From UHGV virus genome UHGV-0326994: 64,000 bases of DNA; one strand, 5' to 3'. Each line of letters begins with the position of its first letter. The stretch's first letter is position 1. The stretch is from a virus. The notes below the pieces were generated by a model. It did not search any database. It was given only the letters and a program-made list of their open reading frames with translations, and was not told where the DNA came from. Both the position numbers and the translations under genes were made by a program. Positions 25,399 to 61,046 of the stretch are shown piece by piece.

Positions 25399-25474
25399 TG
25401 GAGAATCCGAAGGGACTCGAACCCTTATAAACCTGTTTTGCAGACAGGCACATAGCCATTTCTGTCACGGATTC
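25399..25474 (-). tRNA. tRNA-Cys (anticodon GCA)
   Basis: Hand-folded cloverleaf; anticodon loop CTGCAAA; T-arm GGGTTCGAGTCCC; CCA encoded. Confidence 0.75.
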
Positions 25475-25478
25475 AAAT

Positions 25479-25571
25479 TGGAGGAAGATACCAGACTTGA
25501 ACTGGTACACCGATTTCTCAGCTACTGGCAGTTTAGCAAACTGCTCCCTTACCTTTTAGGGTTAATCTTCC
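25479..25571 (-). tRNA. tRNA-Ser (anticodon GCU), class II
   Basis: 93 nt; acceptor GGAAGAT/ATCTTCC; anticodon loop TTGCTAA; long variable arm; CCA encoded. Confidence 0.65.
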
Positions 25572-25572
25572 A

Positions 25573-26307
25573 TTATTTCTGTAATGCGCTCTTCATTTCT
25601 GGTGTTGCAATAGTGTCAATCACACCAGTTTTACAAGCATCATCAAACCAGTCTGGTAAGATACCTGCTAAGAACCCATTGATATTCGTTTTAAGGTACT
25701 CTGCAATAAGGGCAGCTTCTTCTTCAATCATTTGCACAACTTCATCTGCATAAGCTGTAATCTTTGAGATACCTTCATTAATCTTACTAACAGCCTGATT
25801 AGCTAAATCAGAAACAGTATCAAGACCTTTGTCAATAGCATCTTGTAAGTCACTTAATACGTCATTGACGCTGTCTAATGTGCCGTTAATAGCATCAATA
25901 GCTTTTTGACCATACTCTGTAGCAACACCCATGATACCGCTGAATGGTGTACAACCAACTTGTTCTCCCGCTGCACCCATAACATTGGAATACCCCTTTG
26001 CTACCTGCATACGTGATGAAAACTCGTCAATAGACTTTTGACCGTAGTCTGTTAGGGTCTTAGTAGTTGCTGTAGTGCTTGTCAGACTAGTTGTAAAGCT
26101 GTTTAGAAGGACTGTTGTAAGTCCAGCGGCAACAAGTTTTTCCTTCATTGTAGGGTCTGTTACAGAGCTAATAGAGCTTACAAGTGATGTAGAGGCAGAT
26201 ACGGTTCCACCGAGAACTGCTGCACCAGTAATAAGTGGGTTAGAAAACCCTTTACCGGTTTTTAAGAGATTAAAAATCTCCTTACCTTGTTCTGTCATCT
26301 CTTTCAT
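25573..26307 (-). CDS. hypothetical S/T-rich protein embedded in tRNA array
   Basis: 244 aa ORF between tRNA-Ser and tRNA-Phe. Confidence 0.4.
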   Translation of the reverse strand: MKEMTEQGKEIFNLLKTGKGFSNPLITGAAVLGGTVSASTSLVSSISSVTDPTMKEKLVAAGLTTVLLNSFTTSLTSTTATTKTLTDYGQKSIDEFSSRMQVAKGYSNVMGAAGEQVGCTPFSGIMGVATEYGQKAIDAINGTLDSVNDVLSDLQDAIDKGLDTVSDLANQAVSKINEGISKITAYADEVVQMIEEEAALIAEYLKTNINGFLAGILPDWFDDACKTGVIDTIATPEMKSALQK

Positions 26308-26323
26308 TAAGCACCTTTAAAAT

Positions 26324-26399
26324 TGGTAGTCCAGTGGGATTTGAACCCTCTTCTCATGTTTTTCAGACACGCGCTTTAACCATATAAGCTACTTGGACT
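26324..26399 (-). tRNA. tRNA-Phe (anticodon GAA)
   Basis: Anticodon loop CTGAAAA; T-arm GGGTTCAAATCCC; CCA encoded. Confidence 0.7.
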
Positions 26400-26405
26400 A
26401 TAAAT

Positions 26406-26481
26406 TGGGGTGACCTACGGGATTTGAACCCGTATAGACCATGTTCACAGCATGGGTCATTACCATTTATGATAAGGCCAC
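26406..26481 (-). tRNA. tRNA-His (anticodon GUG)
   Basis: Anticodon stem-loop CCATG CTGTGAA CATGG; discriminator C; CCA encoded. Confidence 0.7.
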
Positions 26482-26512
26482 ATTTAAGGACTCTCGTAAG
26501 AACCCTTAGAAG

Positions 26513-26588
26513 TGGCAGCGGCATAAGGATTTGAACCTTAATAGGACAGCTTCAGAGACTGTTGCATTGCCAGTTATGCTATACCGCT
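26513..26588 (-). tRNA. tRNA-Gln (anticodon CUG)
   Basis: Anticodon loop CTCTGAA; T-arm TAAGGTTCAAATCCTTA; CCA encoded. Confidence 0.65.
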
Positions 26589-26593
26589 AAATT

Positions 26594-26672
26594 TGGTACT
26601 CCATATCGGATTCGAACCGATACATAACACAGATTTTAAGTCTGGCCTCTCTGCCAATTGGAGTAATGGAGC
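26594..26672 (-). tRNA. tRNA with Leu-type anticodon UAA but class-I length (tentative)
   Basis: 79 nt; acceptor and T-arm good, CCA encoded, discriminator A; D-loop CAATTGGCAGA; 4 bp anticodon stem with loop CTTAAAA. Confidence 0.45.
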
Positions 26673-26674
26673 AT

Positions 26675-26750
26675 TGGCGGGGGATGTTGGAATTGAACCA
26701 ACTTCTTCGATTTCAAAGACCGAGGTTTTAACCTTGTAAACTAATCCCCT
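26675..26750 (-). tRNA. tRNA-Gln (anticodon UUG)
   Basis: Anticodon stem-loop TCGGT CTTTGAA ATCGA; A1-C72 mismatch; CCA encoded. Confidence 0.6.
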
Positions 26751-26758
26751 TTAAATCT

Positions 26759-27316
26759 TTACTTTCTTAGTGGATGAATAAAGAATGCCAACATAACTCT
26801 TTCCCTTGAGAATGCTCTTTCTTCTGGGACAACACTTTTAAGTTTCCATCCAACATAAATTCTCCAGTAGAATTGTTTACCAAAGATTTTAATTGACGGG
26901 ATAAAAGCGAATAAACCCCAAGCATTACTGTTCCACATTAGGAGATAACCTGTCTGATTATCTTCAGGGTTAGAACTTACGTTGATATTACCTTTCCACT
27001 TAGTAACATCTTTTACATCTCTTCCTAACACATGGTAAGAGAAGTTATAAGCTTTGTTTCTCCAGAGCCATCCAACTCTCTGCATGTAAACACCGAGCTT
27101 ACCAATCTTTCTAATCTTAGCCCATCGTTTGATATGACCTGCATCACCATCAATTGGGTTGTCATATGTCTCCATCCATCTGAAACCAAAAGGTAGATGG
27201 CCTTTCTTCTCACTGTAAAATGGGACTACGAAAGGTGCTAAGATAACTGCTAAGATTGCTGCAAATGGCTCTAACAAAGCTAAGAAAATCCATGAAGCAT
27301 ACTTAAAATATCTCAT
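26759..27316 (-). CDS. membrane protein embedded in tRNA array
   Basis: 185 aa; N-terminal hydrophobic segment WIFLALLEPFAAILAVILAPFVV. Confidence 0.4.
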   Translation of the reverse strand: MRYFKYASWIFLALLEPFAAILAVILAPFVVPFYSEKKGHLPFGFRWMETYDNPIDGDAGHIKRWAKIRKIGKLGVYMQRVGWLWRNKAYNFSYHVLGRDVKDVTKWKGNINVSSNPEDNQTGYLLMWNSNAWGLFAFIPSIKIFGKQFYWRIYVGWKLKSVVPEERAFSRERVMLAFFIHPLRK

Positions 27317-27555
27317 TGTCTAATCCTAGTAAGGAGGTAAACATTATTATCTGTTTCTGAGTTTTCTGGTAAAGCTGTCTCAAAATTGACGCTTTTAAAT
27401 TGTCTCCCACCAAAGTAATGACCAATAAATTTTTGTACTTTTATTGGGTCACATTCCCAGCCGACTTTCAAGAAAATGTGGGTATCTATAGTGGGAACCC
27501 TTACAAACTCAATGCTATTGGAATTTTCATGTTCAACGACTATTAACGTTTGCAT
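27313..27555 (-). CDS. hypothetical protein
   Basis: 80 aa ORF overlapping previous stop (ATGA). Confidence 0.35.
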   Translation of the reverse strand: MQTLIVVEHENSNSIEFVRVPTIDTHIFLKVGWECDPIKVQKFIGHYFGGRQFKSVNFETALPENSETDNNVYLLTRIRQ

Positions 27556-27573
27556 AAACCCCTCTTACTTGTC

Positions 27574-27649
27574 TGGCGCAGGATAAGGGATTCGAACCCC
27601 TATTAACAGCTTCGTAGACTGTTGCTCTATCCATTTGAACTAATCCTGC
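27574..27649 (-). tRNA. tRNA-Arg (anticodon ACG)
   Basis: Acceptor GCAGGAT/ATCCTGC; anticodon loop CTACGAA; CCA encoded. Confidence 0.75.
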
Positions 27650-27757
27650 TTACCTACGAGAACACCATACAGTTTTTCACAAACTTTGTTTTTACGTCTG
27701 TTTAGGTATGACGCTCTAAACTTTTTTGCGATGGACTTATTACTCATAGTGCTCTCC

Positions 27758-27835
27758 TAAAAAATTGGTGTTCCAAGACGGATTCGAACCGTCACTAGTA
27801 CAAGGTTTGAGCTTGCATCCTCTGCCAATTGGGAT
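27758..27835 (-). tRNA. tRNA with Leu anticodon CAA, class-I length
   Basis: 78 nt; D-arm TCC CAATTGGCAGA GGA; anticodon stem-loop GCAAG CTCAAAC CTTGT; discriminator A; CCA encoded; only ~6 nt variable loop. Confidence 0.55.
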
Positions 27836-27836
27836 A

Positions 27837-27911
27837 CTGGAACATGGTACTCACTAAAGGACTTGAACCTTTTTCTTCATCTTGTAAGGGTGGTGTTTTA
27901 CCATATAAACT
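27837..27911 (-). tRNA. tRNA-like gene, possible anticodon UAC (Val), weak anticodon stem
   Basis: Good acceptor (ACTCGCT/AGTGAGT), T-arm and CCA, but the anticodon stem pairs at only 3 of 5 positions. Confidence 0.4.
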
Positions 27912-28007
27912 AAGCGAGTGTGAAAGAGGTCTGAAGTTGTGCCACTAACTCAACTCCGTGGAATTTGTTACGGTCTTCAGTTGACTCAAAGTGGTCTTTC
28001 ACTTGAC

Positions 28008-28083
28008 CTCTGAATTGGTGCTCCCACAAGGATTCGAACCCTGATAAGTTGCTTACAAGGCAACCGTAATAGCCAATTATACG
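28008..28083 (-). tRNA. tRNA-Thr (anticodon UGU)
   Basis: Anticodon stem-loop GTTGC CTTGTAA GCAAC; CCA encoded. Confidence 0.7.
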
Positions 28084-28090
28084 ATAGGAG

Positions 28091-28165
28091 CATTAATTTG
28101 GAGCATCCAGAGGGAATCGAACCCTCAACCTCAGTTTGGAAGACTGTAATTTTCCCGTTTAAACT
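28091..28165 (-). tRNA. tRNA-Gly (anticodon UCC)
   Basis: Acceptor GCATCCA/TGGATGC; anticodon loop CTTCCAA; CCA encoded. Confidence 0.7.
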
Positions 28166-28171
28166 ATGGAT

Positions 28172-28247
28172 GCACTAATTGGTGGAGTCACTGAGAATTG
28201 AACTCAGTTCCCAAGTTTGCAAAACTCGAATTTTAACCATATAAACT
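28172..28247 (-). tRNA. tRNA-Ala (anticodon UGC)
   Basis: Acceptor GGGGTCA with G3-U70 pair typical of tRNA-Ala; anticodon loop TTTGCAA; CCA encoded. Confidence 0.7.
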
Positions 28248-28253
28248 ATGACC

Positions 28254-47445: not shown

Positions 47446-47537
47446 TTTTGAGTCTCCTAGTTTAAGGGCTTTATTTGATAAATCTCTTTATCTGGGGCTA
47501 TCCTACCAGCTTGATAACCCCGTGTAAAGAAATCTAT
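47446..47537 (-). repeat. intergenic cassette, type B variant
   Basis: catttttgagtctcctagtttaagggctttatttgataaatctctttatctggggcta... Confidence 0.6.
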
Positions 47538-48050
47538 TTAGTTCTTAAAGATATTCATCACTGAATCTTTCAACGATTCCAAACGTTCTAATACTTCAGT
47601 TTCTGCGTCTGAATTGCTCACCTCTTCTTTTAGTCTATCCTCTAAATCATCACCGTCACGATAGCACCAATCGAAAGCATAACCAAGATAAAAACTTTCT
47701 AAAACCGTGTTACCGTTTGCATCCACAACTTTCGCGGCAAGGTTGTACTCTGAAGCCTCTAAATCTCTTTCGAGTTCTTTCTGTAAGCTGGTGTAAGCCT
47801 CTTTTGATGGATTTTCCCGACCTTGTTTTGCATAGTCACTTGAAAGCTGTTTCAGGCTGTAATGTAAAGGGATTGCATATTTAAATCCATTACGCTGATA
47901 AATAGGATTTTTAACAGTAACACCGCCTTGATGGTTGTCTGTAAATTCCCAATTATCAAGGTTATGGCTTGCTTCGTAGCAATTAACAGCTTCGTAAATG
48001 ATGGAAAATTTTTCTTTTACAACTTCAAAGGTAGCGTCTACAGTTTTCAT
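47538..48050 (-). CDS. small-gene island protein 11 (acidic)
   Basis: 170 aa; preceded by type-B cassette. Confidence 0.45.
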   Translation of the reverse strand: MKTVDATFEVVKEKFSIIYEAVNCYEASHNLDNWEFTDNHQGGVTVKNPIYQRNGFKYAIPLHYSLKQLSSDYAKQGRENPSKEAYTSLQKELERDLEASEYNLAAKVVDANGNTVLESFYLGYAFDWCYRDGDDLEDRLKEEVSNSDAETEVLERLESLKDSVMNIFKN

Positions 48051-48135
48051 TTTTGAATCTCCAGTTTAGGATTTAGTGGTAAAGCTCTTTATCTGGGGCT
48101 TAAGATATCAACTTTTAAGCCCCTTGTAAAGTACT
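48051..48135 (-). repeat. intergenic cassette, type B
   Basis: catttttgaatctccagtttaggatttagtggtaaagctctttatctggggcttaagatatcaacttttaagcccc. Confidence 0.7.
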
Positions 48136-48429
48136 TTATTTGTTAATTTTCAGCTTTGCATAACCTCTCATTGTACGGATGGGCGATGTTAAGGCCATGC
48201 GTCTGATATATGCCTTTTTCGTGTATACGCTTGTCTTCCCGATAGTGTTTACACATGTAAAAAGGTTTACCGGTGAATTTTTTAACTTCAACTGCTTATC
48301 AGCCTTCACGCCCCACCTTACAGCGGATTGTTTCCCGTTGTCAATCACTTTCCCGCATAACTTTTTAGCTATGTTGCGAGCGTCATCACGAGTCTTTGCA
48401 GTAATTACAACGTTTTTGATAATAGCCAT
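48136..48429 (-). CDS. small-gene island protein 12 (basic)
   Basis: Start moved to the ATG (MAII...); the ORF-track start is a TTG inside the cassette. Confidence 0.45.
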   Translation of the reverse strand: MAIIKNVVITAKTRDDARNIAKKLCGKVIDNGKQSAVRWGVKADKQLKLKNSPVNLFTCVNTIGKTSVYTKKAYIRRMALTSPIRTMRGYAKLKINK

Positions 48430-48515
48430 TTTTAAGTTCTCCAATTTAGGATTGAGTGGTAAAGCTCTTTATCTGGGGCTTACTTTATCGAACTATAAGC
48501 CCCTTGTAAAGTACT
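48430..48515 (-). repeat. intergenic cassette, type B
   Basis: Near-identical to the 46373 copy. Confidence 0.7.
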
Positions 48516-48896
48516 TTATTTAATTTTGAAAATTGTTACATAACCATCACTACCGATTATTTGAGACACTCCAGCTTTTTCTACTTGATAGCCCATATTT
48601 TCAAGATGATAAACAGCATCATCATAACCATATGCGCCGCCTTGATAACGTCTCTTATCGCATCTTACTAATACCTTTCCACGTCCAGCAAGTGCATTCA
48701 GTACAGCTTTTTCACTTGAGAGTGTGCCATCTAACATGGTTGCCGTGTAATGGTTGATTCTATTCCCGTTTACATCATACTTAAAATTGTATGCGTGAAC
48801 AACAATAACGTTGCCTTTGAAATTTTCATCAAGTGACTTCTCCAGTACTTTGCGAAAGTTGTCTTTGTTGATGAATTTCGGTGCACGATAAGCCAT
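48516..48896 (-). CDS. small-gene island protein 13
   Basis: 126 aa; preceded by type-B cassette. Confidence 0.45.
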   Translation of the reverse strand: MAYRAPKFINKDNFRKVLEKSLDENFKGNVIVVHAYNFKYDVNGNRINHYTATMLDGTLSSEKAVLNALAGRGKVLVRCDKRRYQGGAYGYDDAVYHLENMGYQVEKAGVSQIIGSDGYVTIFKIK

Positions 48897-48985
48897 TTTT
48901 GAATCTCCTAGTTTAAGGTTAGTTAGTAAAGCTCTTTATCTGGGGCTTACTTTATCGAACTATAAGCCCCTTGTAAAGTACTTTA
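48897..48985 (-). repeat. intergenic cassette, type B
   Basis: gccatttttgaatctcctagtttaaggttagttagtaaagctctttatctggggcttactttatcgaactataagcccc. Confidence 0.7.
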
Positions 48986-49192
48986 TTAGATATTGTAGTA
49001 ATAAACTGCTGTCTGTCTTATGTACTTTCTTGTATTTCTTGTAAGGTAGCAATTAGAGTTTATAGCTGTTTCTACATAGTTGCAATAGTCAGCTTCTGAT
49101 ATTCTGGACCATACGTCACAGATTTTCATGTAAAAACGTTTTACCTTTGTGTTAACGTTAGTTGTAACCATCAATTCGCGACTGTACAGCAT
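48986..49192 (-). CDS. small-gene island protein 14
   Basis: 68 aa; preceded by degenerate cassette. Confidence 0.35.
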   Translation of the reverse strand: MLYSRELMVTTNVNTKVKRFYMKICDVWSRISEADYCNYVETAINSNCYLTRNTRKYIRQTAVYYYNI

Positions 49193-49260
49193 TTTTAGAT
49201 TCTCCAGTTTAGGAAGTGGGCTTGATTGCCCGTCTGATGCAAATATTAGATAACCATACT
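49193..49260 (-). repeat. degenerate cassette copy
   Basis: catttttagattctccagtttaggaagtgggcttgattgcccgtctgatgc; 5' part conserved, hairpin replaced. Confidence 0.5.
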
Positions 49261-49419
49261 CAAAGAGTCAATAGGAATTTTAAAAATATTTTTGGCAAAA
49301 ATGTAATGAAACGGGTGCGCGCGAATACCACAAAACAGAACACAAATCAAGAATTATTTTCCAATCCGCTACAAATTTTTCTGTTGACTTTTCTTTTCGG
49401 ATGTGGTAGCCTTGTGAGA

Positions 49420-49640
49420 AATGGCGACATTCCCACCTGCACCCACCTACCTGCACAATTCTAAAATGATTTTTCTTGCCCGACCTGAGCGGGGTCTGCA
49501 CGTTTTGAAAATAAAAAAGCTCTTTGGAGATTATCTGCACAGTTTGAAAATGAATTTTCTCTTTGGAGTTCAAAATTTTCTCTACAGATTTCTCTAGAGA
49601 AATACACCTGCACAATCCTGAAATAAAAAAGCCCTCCTTA
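49420..49640. repeat. three direct repeats CTGCACA(A/G)T(T/C)(C/T)TGAAAATGA-like
   Basis: cacctacctgcacaattctaaaatga, ttatctgcacagtttgaaaatga, acacctgcacaatcctgaaataaaaaag. Confidence 0.5.
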
Positions 49641-49699
49641 CCTGAAAAATTTACCAGATAAGAAAGGCTTAGTCTATTGTGAATATCCTACAGAGTTTC

Positions 49700-50485
49700 T
49701 TAGTTCTTTGCGTCTAAGAAGGTAACTTCCGGTGAAGAGAAAATTTCCTCAACATCCTCATCAGTTCTTGCATAGATATATGTATCTGCATCACTGCCAA
49801 ATGTTACTGCAATCCTGTGATTGTTCTTTGACAGGTGGGTAACTAGAGCGTTACTTAGAGACATCTTTTCAACCGGAGGGTTACTTTGATGTATCTTGCC
49901 TTTTCTTCGTCTGAAGAGGGTAACTGCATCATTAGTGAACACTACTACACCTGCAAAGTATTCTGGTTCACAGTAGTTCTTCCAACCTGAGCGTAACTTG
50001 TGGTACATCTCTCCTTCGTAGACATACAGATACACATCTACACTCTTCATCACCTGATTGATAATAACTGTGACAGCTTGAGGGTCAAGTCCACCGATTC
50101 CTGCGCCAATCATAGGTAAACCAACTTTCTTTAACTGGTTCACTTCACAGTATCTGTTGAGCTGGTTCAAAGATGACTCTAAAGCACTGTATCGGGCATC
50201 TTTACCAGTCTTAAGCTGAGTGTAAAGGTTAGCTATACGACCTTGTTTTAAACGTGCTACAGAGAAATTACCTAGCAAATTTTCACAGGGTTTGTGGCCT
50301 ATACCACCTGCATACAGATAAACTTCTGTATCAGTCTCATATGCTTTTGGGTAAAGTTTAGAAATCTTGTCAGCGATACCTGCACCCATTAAGTTCATAC
50401 AGTTGCAACCGTGACCGATGACGTCAAACTTACCTTTATCAAATGCTGCAAAGATATCACCATTGATGATTTTTACAATACCCAT
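49700..50485 (-). CDS. macro-domain protein (ADP-ribose binding/processing) with C-terminal extension
   Basis: 261 aa; N-terminal IINGDIF...VIGHGCNCMNLMGAGIADKI...GLPMIGAGIGGLDP resembles the macro-domain core; C-terminal ~90 aa of unknown fold. Confidence 0.6.
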   Translation of the reverse strand: MGIVKIINGDIFAAFDKGKFDVIGHGCNCMNLMGAGIADKISKLYPKAYETDTEVYLYAGGIGHKPCENLLGNFSVARLKQGRIANLYTQLKTGKDARYSALESSLNQLNRYCEVNQLKKVGLPMIGAGIGGLDPQAVTVIINQVMKSVDVYLYVYEGEMYHKLRSGWKNYCEPEYFAGVVVFTNDAVTLFRRRKGKIHQSNPPVEKMSLSNALVTHLSKNNHRIAVTFGSDADTYIYARTDEDVEEIFSSPEVTFLDAKN

Positions 50486-50686
50486 TTAACATCTCTCCCA
50501 AGATTCTTTATCTTCTGAAGGTTTTACACGTTGTCCTTCGTGGTCTACCCAGATACACCCGCAGCCTTCACAGATTACTGGCATTGCATAACCAGCTTTA
50601 AAGTCATCTTCAGTGATAAGACCTTTTAAGTCTCCTGTATCACGTCCGAACATTTCGATAGAACAGTCTTTGCAGAAGTCAGCCAC
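50486..50686 (-). CDS. small Cys-rich (zinc-ribbon-like) protein
   Basis: 66 aa; CKDC...CEGCGC. Confidence 0.4.
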   Translation of the reverse strand: MADFCKDCSIEMFGRDTGDLKGLITEDDFKAGYAMPVICEGCGCIWVDHEGQRVKPSEDKESWERC

Positions 50687-51992: not shown

Positions 51993-52017
51993 TTAACAAT
52001 CTCCTGAAATGAAAAAG

Positions 52018-52042
52018 GCTCCCGAAGGAGCCTGTATCTTAA
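52018..52042 (-). terminator. rho-independent terminator
   Basis: ggctcc-cgaa-ggagcc with a T-run on the minus strand. Confidence 0.65.
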
Positions 52043-58322: not shown

Positions 58323-60104
58323 TTAAAGCTGCTTGTCAATATTATTTCGAATATCACCAAGAGATGTGTAGCCATACTGCTCAGAATCACTAAAGACTAA
58401 GCGTAGAGCACAAGCTGGATGTTCAAGTGCATCTGCAAAGCTCTGGAATCCATAACCATCTACAGCTTTCAGTTTATCACCATCCCACATAGGTGCTACA
58501 CCACCAAAAGCAGACTTCTTAACACCGCTATCTGTTTTAGGGTCTTTTGCAAGCATAATCTCTTTACCACCAATGCTTGCAAGAGTCGCTTTAACAGCAA
58601 ATGCAAAGGTGTCACGAGTCATGTACTGGTAAGTGTAAGAGCCTACGCCAAACACTACGTTAGAGCTTGCAAAACCCATTTCATACAGACGCTTCAGGAT
58701 TTCGTTTGCACGTTCCAGTGTGATAGAGTCACCATAGATAAGGCCAATGTGTTCATCCAGTACCTTAAAACCTTTGGAGTTGATAGTCCCTCCGAAGATG
58801 TTATACAGGGTCTTAATAGCCCCATCAATCTCTGCTACAGGGCGTGTTACAACGTTTGCAGAACCAACCATATAAGCGTTCTTCAACAGCACTGTATCAG
58901 CAACTTCAAAGTCTTCTCTGTCAACAACCATTTCGTAGCCTTCTGACAGTAGCCATCCAGCAATACCATAGCTGATGTTTTCAAGCTTCATATTCAGAAC
59001 AGCATTCAACATTGTGTCGCTGGCTTCCAACTTACTAAGGTGCTCATAATAAGCCTTTTTAGCGCACTCTAAGTGGATTGCTTTATAACCTGTGACAATA
59101 TGTACAGGGTCTCCAGAGTCAGGACGAATTACCAGTTTACCGTCACGTTCCATAATCTCTTTGCGAAGTGCTGGTAAGATTTCTGACACAGTTCTCCAGA
59201 AGTTATAAGTATCTGAAACAACACTTGCAATACCAGTCGGGTAAGTCTTTGTTAAGAAACGACGGAAGGTCTGCAACTCACCTTTAAAGCGTCTTTCCTC
59301 TTCAATCAATTCATTACCACCTTCCCAAGCAATGTTTGCACACATTACAGAGTGTTCAGTGGCTGGTACAGAACCACCAATATCAGAGACTGGGTAAGAC
59401 TGTCCGTAGATGCGTTTAGCTGTATATACAGCAGGGAAGCTATCAGTCCCTTTAAAGCTGGTCAAGTGACCTACAGCATTAAATGCGTCATCAGTAAAGC
59501 CGGACATACCACGCATAGCAAAGTCATGGCACTGATAAGGTAAATGTAAGTCATTGTCACAAGTAAGGTCAGCCCACTTCTTACAGATGCGTTTGTAGTG
59601 CAATGCAATAGTTGCAATGGTACAAGCCTTCCAAATCTCAGCAGAGAAAGCATCTTCCAGATAACCTGCTACCCAATGAAAACCTGAAACAGTGTTCTGG
59701 AAGACAATCATTGGTACACGCATCGGAACAACTGTACCTTCTTCTACAGCGTATACCTCAACTGGCAGATAGCCTAAGTCGTGAAGTGCTTCCCAATGTT
59801 CTCGACCAATAGCATCTTTACCAAGAACACCGTTCATGACTTCTAAGATTTCGTCAATTGCTTCTTTTTTATCACGTTCAAAGAAAGTGGCGTTCCAATG
59901 GTCTATCAAGTAATCTTTAACAAAACGTTGAATACCAAAAGCTACTACACCGTCAATTGCTAAGGGGCTGTTAAACCATTTGTCGCTACGTGGTGTCAGG
60001 TTGAACATCAAGTACTCTGTTGCGCTAGGATACTGGTAAACATGACCAGATTTGTAAGCATCTGCATTTAAACCTGCTGGTACTGCGTAAAGTGATTTAG
60101 TCAT
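58323..60104 (-). CDS. nadV: nicotinamide phosphoribosyltransferase (Nampt/NadV)
   Basis: 593 aa; size and N-terminal AYKSGH motif typical of Nampt; adjacent to PRPP synthetase. Confidence 0.8.
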   Translation of the reverse strand: MTKSLYAVPAGLNADAYKSGHVYQYPSATEYLMFNLTPRSDKWFNSPLAIDGVVAFGIQRFVKDYLIDHWNATFFERDKKEAIDEILEVMNGVLGKDAIGREHWEALHDLGYLPVEVYAVEEGTVVPMRVPMIVFQNTVSGFHWVAGYLEDAFSAEIWKACTIATIALHYKRICKKWADLTCDNDLHLPYQCHDFAMRGMSGFTDDAFNAVGHLTSFKGTDSFPAVYTAKRIYGQSYPVSDIGGSVPATEHSVMCANIAWEGGNELIEEERRFKGELQTFRRFLTKTYPTGIASVVSDTYNFWRTVSEILPALRKEIMERDGKLVIRPDSGDPVHIVTGYKAIHLECAKKAYYEHLSKLEASDTMLNAVLNMKLENISYGIAGWLLSEGYEMVVDREDFEVADTVLLKNAYMVGSANVVTRPVAEIDGAIKTLYNIFGGTINSKGFKVLDEHIGLIYGDSITLERANEILKRLYEMGFASSNVVFGVGSYTYQYMTRDTFAFAVKATLASIGGKEIMLAKDPKTDSGVKKSAFGGVAPMWDGDKLKAVDGYGFQSFADALEHPACALRLVFSDSEQYGYTSLGDIRNNIDKQL

Positions 60105-60116
60105 CTTTTAGTCTCT

Positions 60117-60141
60117 CTCAAAATGGGGCTATGAAGCCCCT
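60117..60141 (-). terminator. hairpin between prs and nadV
   Basis: ggggct-atga-agcccc followed on the minus strand by ATTTTGAGAG. Confidence 0.5.
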
Positions 60142-60149
60142 ATAAAGTT

Positions 60150-61046
60150 TTAATCAAGGTTTGCTACAGTAACTTGACCATAATGTGTTAACCCACGGTC
60201 TTTAGCTTCCCCTAAAGAGTTTGTAGTGTAGATATGGTCAATACCATTGTCAAGTAAGTTTTCAACACCTTTAGAGAAGATACCATGTGTTACATAGAGT
60301 TCCACACGTTTTGCACCTGCTTCACGTAGGTGTTTCGCTGCCTCTATGAAGGTTCGTCCTCCATCACAAATATCATCCAGAATCATGACTGTTTTATCTG
60401 TCAAATCAACATCATCAAGGATTCGCATACCAGTGATTTCACCAGTCTTGAGGTTACGTACTTTAGACATTGTGATGTATGGCTTATCCACTTCTTTAGC
60501 AGTCTCTGCAATCTTCTTAGCAGCACCTGCATCTGGGGCTACTAAGTAATCAACCAGTGGGTCATTTGCATAGTGGACTGCAATTTCCTTTTGAGGAATA
60601 CTCTGGAAGCAGTTAAACAGGTTATCTGGTACATAGCTGTGAGGGTCAACTGCACAGACTGCATCAAAACCCATTGCATTAACCTGTTGTGCAAACACTT
60701 TCAAAGCTGCTGCATCGCCTTTAAACATGTGACGGTCATAACGTGCATTTGGCAAATAGTAAAAGATAATGGTCTTCATAGCAAACTTATGGGGTACTAA
60801 ATCATCAATTGCTTCTTTAGCAAGTGCCACAGCAAACAATGTGTCTTTATCATAACCTTTTACAATCATAATCACATTGTTGATGGATGATGCTGCATAA
60901 GCAGTGAAATCAACAAACTCTGGTGAAAAGTGTCCACCAATCTCACCAGAAGGGAATTGGATGATGTTAAACTCTTCTTCGTGAGTCCCTTTAGTGGGTG
61001 AATGGACTGTAACACGGATAGATGTTTTCATAGTTTTCTCTCTCAA
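60150..61046 (-). CDS. prs: ribose-phosphate pyrophosphokinase (PRPP synthetase)
   Basis: 298 aa; PRPP-binding motif VMILDDICDGGRTF and flexible-loop region. Confidence 0.8.
   Translation of the reverse strand: MREKTMKTSIRVTVHSPTKGTHEEEFNIIQFPSGEIGGHFSPEFVDFTAYAASSINNVIMIVKGYDKDTLFAVALAKEAIDDLVPHKFAMKTIIFYYLPNARYDRHMFKGDAAALKVFAQQVNAMGFDAVCAVDPHSYVPDNLFNCFQSIPQKEIAVHYANDPLVDYLVAPDAGAAKKIAETAKEVDKPYITMSKVRNLKTGEITGMRILDDVDLTDKTVMILDDICDGGRTFIEAAKHLREAGAKRVELYVTHGIFSKGVENLLDNGIDHIYTTNSLGEAKDRGLTHYGQVTVANLD

Follow-up and report, generated by a model that had tools for sequence, protein, structure and literature searches.

The macro gene of Felix O1-like phages, whose product carries a further domain behind its macrodomain, raises the question of which ADP-ribosylated substrate the protein acts upon and what the additional domain contributes. 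The copy examined here lies in a stretch of 64,000 nt from the virus genome UHGV-0326994 (hereafter the window). A first-pass annotation had given the exact coordinates of the gene but no strand, which was found to be minus, and the motifs that it had quoted in favor of a macrodomain were all located in the translation (GDIF at aa 9-12, VIGHGCNCMNLMGAGIADKI at aa 22-41 and GLPMIGAGIGGL at aa 122-133). The features on which the argument draws are collected in Table 1.

Table 1. Features of the macro gene, its protein and its surroundings in the window.
Feature	Position	Strand	Basis or remark
Macro gene ORF, 261 aa + stop	49700..50485	-	ATG at 50485, stop at 49700; ORF list
Macrodomain, aa 1-157	50015..50485	-	Pfam PF01661, Foldseek, T4 Tk.4 similarity, PADLOC DarG profile
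Macro key residues	D10 (GDIF); H25-G26-C27-N28; loop 1 G34-A35-G36	-	19-homologue alignment
Macro key residues, continued	N86-L87-Y88-T89-Q90; loop 2 G127-A128-G129-I130-G131-G132	-	19-homologue alignment
C-terminal domain, aa 158-261	49703..50014	-	linker helix 158-167, six beta strands 179-239, helix 243-249
Allele replacement stretch	49512..50343		about codon 48 to 190 nt past stop; loss of nucleotide similarity
Intrinsic-terminator-like hairpin	49629..49670	-	17-bp stem then T-rich run; 30 nt after stop; consensus scan
Cys-rich ORF, 66 aa (CxxC...CxxCxC, PHROG 2210)	50486..50686	-	stop codon abuts macro ATG
Polynucleotide kinase-like gene, 231 aa	52520..53215	-	PHROG 3970 'polynucleotide kinase', E 1.9e-133
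Nampt-like gene (PF04095 + PF18127)	58323..60104	-	NARP1 Namat
Prs-like gene (PF00156 + PF14572)	60150..61046	-	NARP1 Adps
tRNA cluster, 25 genes	25399..31165	-	

The distribution of the gene among phages places it within a known lineage. The window belongs to a Felixounavirus: about 200 genomes of this genus share 93-96% identity with the DNA around the gene, Bas63 (JohannRWettstein), another carrier, having about 93% nucleotide identity there, and Felix O1 itself carries the macro gene. Conservation extends over the Felix O1-like phages, with a gene identity of 92-98% in Felixounavirus genomes and of 64-70% in Mooglevirus and Suspvirus. Hundreds of public genomes already contain the gene under the annotation of a macrodomain protein, and the present analysis is therefore a refinement rather than the discovery of a new system. 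The public labels of the protein include "macro domain-containing protein", "putative phosphatase", "O-acetyl-ADP-ribose deacetylase" and "hypothetical", and some records describe it as 'Poa1p-like' or as a 'high-affinity ADP-ribose binding module'; a search of the literature on the macro gene of Felix O1 or Bas63 found no study. By tblastn the macro part occurs in about 2,800 phage records, and the full-length form in only about 277. Most relatives are macro-only proteins of 145-190 aa, and the longer forms have 260-283 aa (79 IMG/VR loci).

The N-terminal part of the window protein is, securely, a macrodomain of the ALC1/TARG1/DarG class. The Pfam family Macro (PF01661) matches aa 25-141 with 30.9 bits (E 2.8e-7, profile positions 2-117 of 118), the curated gathering cut-off of this family being 22 bits. 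An AlphaFold2 model of the full-length protein built from 19 homologues (pLDDT 86.8, pTM 0.85) consists of a macro fold at aa 1-155, a linker helix at 158-167 and a compact domain at 179-249. Structure prediction had been proposed as the check on the macrodomain call, with a non-macro Rossmann-like domain as the competing outcome; the fold obtained is the three-layer alpha/beta/alpha macro fold. When the model was compared with the PDB by Foldseek, the best structure match was Taq DarG (5m3e, E 7.9e-9, TM 0.80), TARG1 superposed at TM 0.81-0.84, and the 50 best matches listed were natural macrodomains, save for a few designed serine hydrolases that we take to be built on a macrodomain scaffold. 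TARG1 is also the best PDB sequence match (E 1.4e-5). Positions 14-146 of the 329 in the PADLOC DarG profile match the macro part (E 3.8e-13), as does NCBIfam NF048014 (DarG; 46.7 bits), and among the PADLOC and NCBIfam profiles DarG was the sole match and was confined to the macro part. Thus, the macrodomain identity proposed in the first-pass annotation is borne out by the Pfam score above cut-off, by the AlphaFold2 model and by the DarG and TARG1 structure matches. The extra domain described there is present as well; the boundary is displaced, as the macro fold ends not at ~170 aa but at about aa 155-157, and the extra part therefore comprises ~105 aa rather than ~90 aa.

Within this class, the family to which the protein belongs includes two phage enzymes that have been linked to defense against DarT2. 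PHROG 335 matches the window protein over aa 1-260 (E 4.8e-112) and also takes in T4 Tk.4 (E 1.3e-65) and PhiKZ gp104 (E 8e-43). The T4 gene tk.4, since renamed adfM, is the single T4 gene needed for DarTG2 resistance, and its deletion sensitizes T4 to DarTG2, the evidence being genetic only (2025 preprint, bioRxiv 10.1101/2025.11.20.689424). [quoted passage not shown] The macro part of the window protein and T4 Tk.4, its closest characterized relative, are 35% identical (BLASTP, E 4e-24, aa 3-157 vs 2-152). The motifs HGCNC, NLYTQ and IGAGIG are common to both, including a Gln in place of the DarG Lys, and both genes are phage orphans without an adjacent darT. The two differ in that Tk.4 (155 aa) is macro-only, whereas the window protein has an extra domain of 105 aa, and in that the genes have unlike neighbors. 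Genetic proof of anti-DarTG2 activity belongs to T4 Tk.4, beside which the window protein is placed by homology.

The ADP-ribose-binding cleft of the window protein is, judging from its sequence, intact, with the GDIF Asp that contacts the adenine in place, as are the two glycine-rich loops for the phosphates; the 19 homologues show little or no variation at D10, G34-A35-G36 and G127-A128-G129-I130-x-G132. N28 and Q90 are invariant in these 19 full-length sequences. The first of these shares a column with DarG N22 and SCO6735 N27, and the conserved Asn (N22/N23) is a likeness to both DarG2 (T. aquaticus, M. tuberculosis) and chimallivirus AdfM (PhiKZ gp104). Q90 aligns with SCO6735 Q85 and, in the other enzymes, with a lysine (DarG K80, PhiKZ K78, TARG1 K84). 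The catalytic Lys of DarG2 (Taq K80, in an F-P-T-K motif) is absent from the window protein, which has Q90 instead, and the TARG1 dyad K84/D125 is absent as well, its counterparts being Q90 and G131.

An enzyme with the same substitution is known from Streptomyces coelicolor. SCO6735 (PDB 5E3B) cleaves DarT-made dT-ADPr on DNA by a Lys-independent mechanism, Q85A being dead and N27S nearly so (PMC9411070). In a MAFFT alignment, for which the sequences of SCO6735 and Bacteroides BT1257 were taken from PDB alignments, the window residues A-N-L-Y-T-Q90 fall on SCO6735 A-N-M-I-G-Q85 and H25-G26-C27-N28 on H24-V25-C26-N27, and T4 Tk.4 N25 and Q84 occupy the SCO6735 N27 and Q85 columns. SCO6735 and BT1257 thus share with the window protein the signature H-x-C-N plus [AF]-N-x-x-x-Q, with N and Q in the same columns. 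They differ from it in that both are cellular, single-domain proteins with an identity of only 22-24%, and SCO6735 has a longer, lysine-bearing mobile loop of its own after the Gln that is not conserved in the window protein. Distant Tk.4-like phage macrodomains also have the [N]-x-Y-[TS]-Q motif. The direct similarity between the window protein and SCO6735 (5e3b) is weak (E 0.34), so that the Gln match rests on the multiple alignment and on transitivity through Tk.4, which matches BT1257 with E 1.3e-9 and 5e3b with E 3.3e-4. With N28 and Q90 in the SCO6735 columns, the branch of phage macrodomains that comprises T4 and Felix O1 belongs to the glutamine type.

The reading preferred here, held with moderate confidence by analogy with these enzymes and in the knowledge that macrodomain substrate range is not readable from sequence (PMC9503650), is that the protein works as an AdfM, using its glutamine-type active site to undo the ADP-ribosylation of phage DNA by DarT2. 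Host DarT2 would attach ADP-ribose to thymidines in single-stranded phage DNA, and the macrodomain would hydrolyze the thymidine-linked ADP-ribose, like T4 Tk.4 (AdfM) and SCO6735. In the course of this reaction Q90, oriented by N28, would keep the distal ribose in place for water-mediated cleavage, which would free ADP-ribose and allow replication to proceed. The removal of ADP-ribosyl marks had been one of the functions suggested when the gene was first annotated; it is the best supported of those suggestions, and is sharpened here by the Tk.4/AdfM membership and the SCO6735 signature.

The C-terminal domain is modeled as a separate, confidently folded and lineage-specific domain, confined to Felix O1-like phages. 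Its pLDDT is 77-91 within the full-length model and 76.7 when the domain is modeled alone, a difference that points to support from the macrodomain. The junction motif N170..P174..F177-x-G179 is conserved; P174 and G179 never vary and Y236 hardly does, and the length and profile of the domain are kept across relatives of 12-53% identity. The domain is under purifying selection, with a dN/dS of 0.19 against 0.07 for the macro part (19 distinct Felixounavirus alleles). When 1.84 billion representative proteins were searched exhaustively with a HMMER profile of the domain, the only matches were the same macrodomain fusion, fragments and spurious repeat proteins. Five of the 11 matches (P0033, P0034, P0036, P0038 and P0039) are large repeat proteins that were rejected as spurious because many unrelated Pfam families matched them through summed weak repeats, and two (P0032 and P0037) are fragments of members of the fusion family. 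A BFVD structure search with the domain returned its own family only, a PDB sequence profile search found nothing, and a Pfam scan gave only a sub-threshold PH match, in two near-identical members; with neither a profile above threshold nor a clear structure match, a PH identity was rejected. A conserved acidic (DNA-mimic) or basic (DNA-binding) character was not found either. The net charge ranges from -6 to +4 and the pI from 4.6 to 9.5 across the family, and the spread in charge speaks against a simple, conserved surface for binding or mimicking DNA.

As part of the preferred reading, the C-terminal domain, always fused to the macrodomain, probably packs against it, since the pTM of the whole chain is high and the model of the domain alone is of lower confidence; this part of the proposal is the more speculative. 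The domain would then be an accessory that adjusts targeting, perhaps by binding the DNA substrate or by engaging a partner from the host or the phage, and would not be a second catalytic unit.

Other tails occur on related macrodomains. The orthologue in Erwinia phage Tian (Kolesnikvirus; locus L003, 2998..3780) has 260 aa, the last 100 of which are missed by the C-domain profile; a relative of 249 aa (L062) ends in an unrelated charged tail; and a further protein (P0027) is a Tk.4-like macrodomain fused to PF20274. Four loci (L003, L035, L036 and L062) were grouped under differing appended tails. Tk.4-like macrodomains thus appear to have gained different tails more than once.

The two-module layout of the window protein, a macrodomain and then a C-terminal domain, is shared with DarG itself, and the protein could be an independent functional mimic of whole DarG, in which the macro part would erase DNA marks and the C-terminal domain would block DarT2 or tether the protein to ssDNA or the replisome. 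This is considered unlikely, if still worth weighing. The C-terminal domain of the window protein has no match to the DarT-binding C-terminal domain of DarG, and homology between the two was rejected; a further difference is that the neighbors of the macro gene include no darT toxin gene.

The allelic history of the locus bears on the preferred reading and on this possibility alike. A divergent allele is present in the Felixounavirus phages Si3, VpaE1 and finno, and at loci L033 and L034 (3143..3936). Protein identity to the window is 97% within its own allele type and 41% for the divergent allele; the genome backbone is 92-94% identical and the flanking genes of both alleles are 92-98% identical, and N28, Q90 and the C-terminal domain are retained by both. 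To judge from this pattern, the 3' four-fifths of the gene, with the whole C-terminal domain, appear to have been exchanged as a cassette. Such replacement is typical of genes under host-imposed diversifying pressure and is as expected for an arms-race locus; together with the dN/dS values it counts in favor of the preferred reading. If the protein were indeed a DarG mimic, the faster evolution of its C-terminal domain and the cassette replacement would represent an arms race with diverse host DarT variants.

A different class of substrate is suggested by the NAD+ genes of the same genome. The Nampt-like and Prs-like genes (58323..61046) stand side by side and correspond to Bas63 genes 79-80, the NARP1 operon (Namat + Adps), which in Felixounavirus Bas63 uses ADP-ribose and nicotinamide to rebuild NAD+; their products are thus not salvage enzymes of the classical kind. 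The macrodomain could act on soluble ADPR-1''-phosphate, O-acetyl-ADP-ribose or ADPR cyclic phosphate, and so feed ADP-ribose to NARP1, which is functional in this close relative of the window phage. The NARP1 intermediate ADPR-PP decays to ADPR cyclic phosphate, and this compound needs a cyclic phosphodiesterase and then a Poa1p-type ADPR-1''-phosphatase. Human TARG1 (OARD1) and yeast Poa1p belong to the same macrodomain class as the window protein, whose HxCNC motif resembles Poa1p HSCNC, and the labels 'phosphatase' and 'Poa1p-like' in public records agree with such a role, as does the view of Iyer et al. that phage macrodomains mainly target soluble ADPr derivatives. However, only aa 17-56 align with Poa1p, and weakly (E 0.011-0.36), and the 'phosphatase' annotations derive from this resemblance only and are inherited. 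A distance of 8 kb separates the macro gene from NARP1, and the two belong to different transcription units, with at least one predicted terminator (52033..52016) in between. To our knowledge T4, which carries the homologue Tk.4, is without NARP1, and the known phenotype of Tk.4 is DarTG2 resistance. A soluble substrate is thus regarded as rather improbable, and the earlier proposal that the macro gene complements NAD+ salvage found no support, as no result obtained here ties the gene to that pathway.

The organization around the gene is consistent with a separate unit. The neighbors of the macro gene are small minus-strand phage ORFs, and it lies downstream of spanins and of the polynucleotide kinase-like gene. 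The hairpin that follows its stop codon suggests that the transcription unit ends with the macro gene. Directly upstream, the 66-aa Cys-rich ORF is found in the same position in 31 related loci, in both alleles; it has no Pfam match, its cysteine pattern is probably that of a zinc ribbon, and it is possibly translationally coupled to the macro gene.

Several features of the flanking DNA were observed in addition. The gap downstream of the macro gene (49193..49699) is unusually long, at about 500 nt, and without a convincing gene, and an Rfam scan of it found no match. A 35-nt element occurs in it three times (49495-49529, 49534-49568 and 49607-49641), the last copy overlapping the terminator hairpin, and the Mordin record has a small opposite-strand ORF annotated in the equivalent region. 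Further along, direct repeats of about 105 nt that are 77-85% identical (48044-48148, 48424-48528 and 48891-48995, with a 29-nt core also at 47471-47499) lie between genes, each ahead of one in a succession of small minus-strand genes, and probably represent promoter or regulatory elements in several copies; short repeat_regions are annotated in the Mordin record at what are presumed to be the corresponding intergenic positions.

It is also doubtful, to much the same degree as for a soluble substrate, that the enzyme reverses ADP-ribosylation of protein or RNA, for example that of the mRNA-modifying CmdTAC, or resets the marks of a phage transferase. TARG1 and SCO6735, which are of the ALC1 class, also act on protein substrates (PMC9411070), and defenses that ADP-ribosylate mRNA exist (PMC11618068). 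The presence of the polynucleotide kinase-like gene at a distance of 2 kb upstream is a hint of a neighborhood concerned with nucleic-acid repair; the product of this gene has no Pfam match at E <= 0.001 and may be a 3'-phosphatase-only relative of T4 PseT, and the Mordin record gives a HAD-like domain for this PHROG 3970 protein. On the other side, no ADP-ribosyltransferase was seen near the macro gene, and the closest structure and profile matches are the DNA-specific DarG enzymes. T-even phages, moreover, carry Tk.4 and yet are restricted by CmdTAC, so that the Tk.4 family is not obviously a counter to CmdTAC.

A non-hydrolyzing ADP-ribose binder, serving as a sponge for TIR-derived signals (gcADPR, His-ADPR) or, as a reader, bringing the C-terminal domain to ADP-ribosylated sites, is highly improbable and was dropped: the missing catalytic Lys of DarG and TARG1, the records that speak of high-affinity binding and the Thoeris II effectors that bind His-ADPR through macrodomains would fit it, but the identical Lys-to-Gln change is found in active SCO6735, where the Gln is essential (PMC9411070), N28 and both loops are invariant, and no phage macrodomain sponge was found in the literature searched.

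Thus, AdfM-type removal of DarT2 marks from phage DNA is the preferred reading, and its glutamine-type, lysine-free active site in the T4 and Felix O1 branch gives N28 and Q90 as mutational targets. The fused orphan domain poses the question of whether an eraser alone suffices or whether phages add a targeting or toxin-binding module, like the bacterial antitoxin. DarTG systems are widespread toxin-antitoxin defenses that stop phage replication by ADP-ribosylating DNA, and the first reports of macrodomain counter-defenses of the AdfM kind, from T4 and nucleus-forming jumbo phages, date from 2025-2026. The protein described here would extend the AdfM family to Felix O1-like phages, a group in wide use for the typing and biocontrol of Salmonella and E. 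coli.
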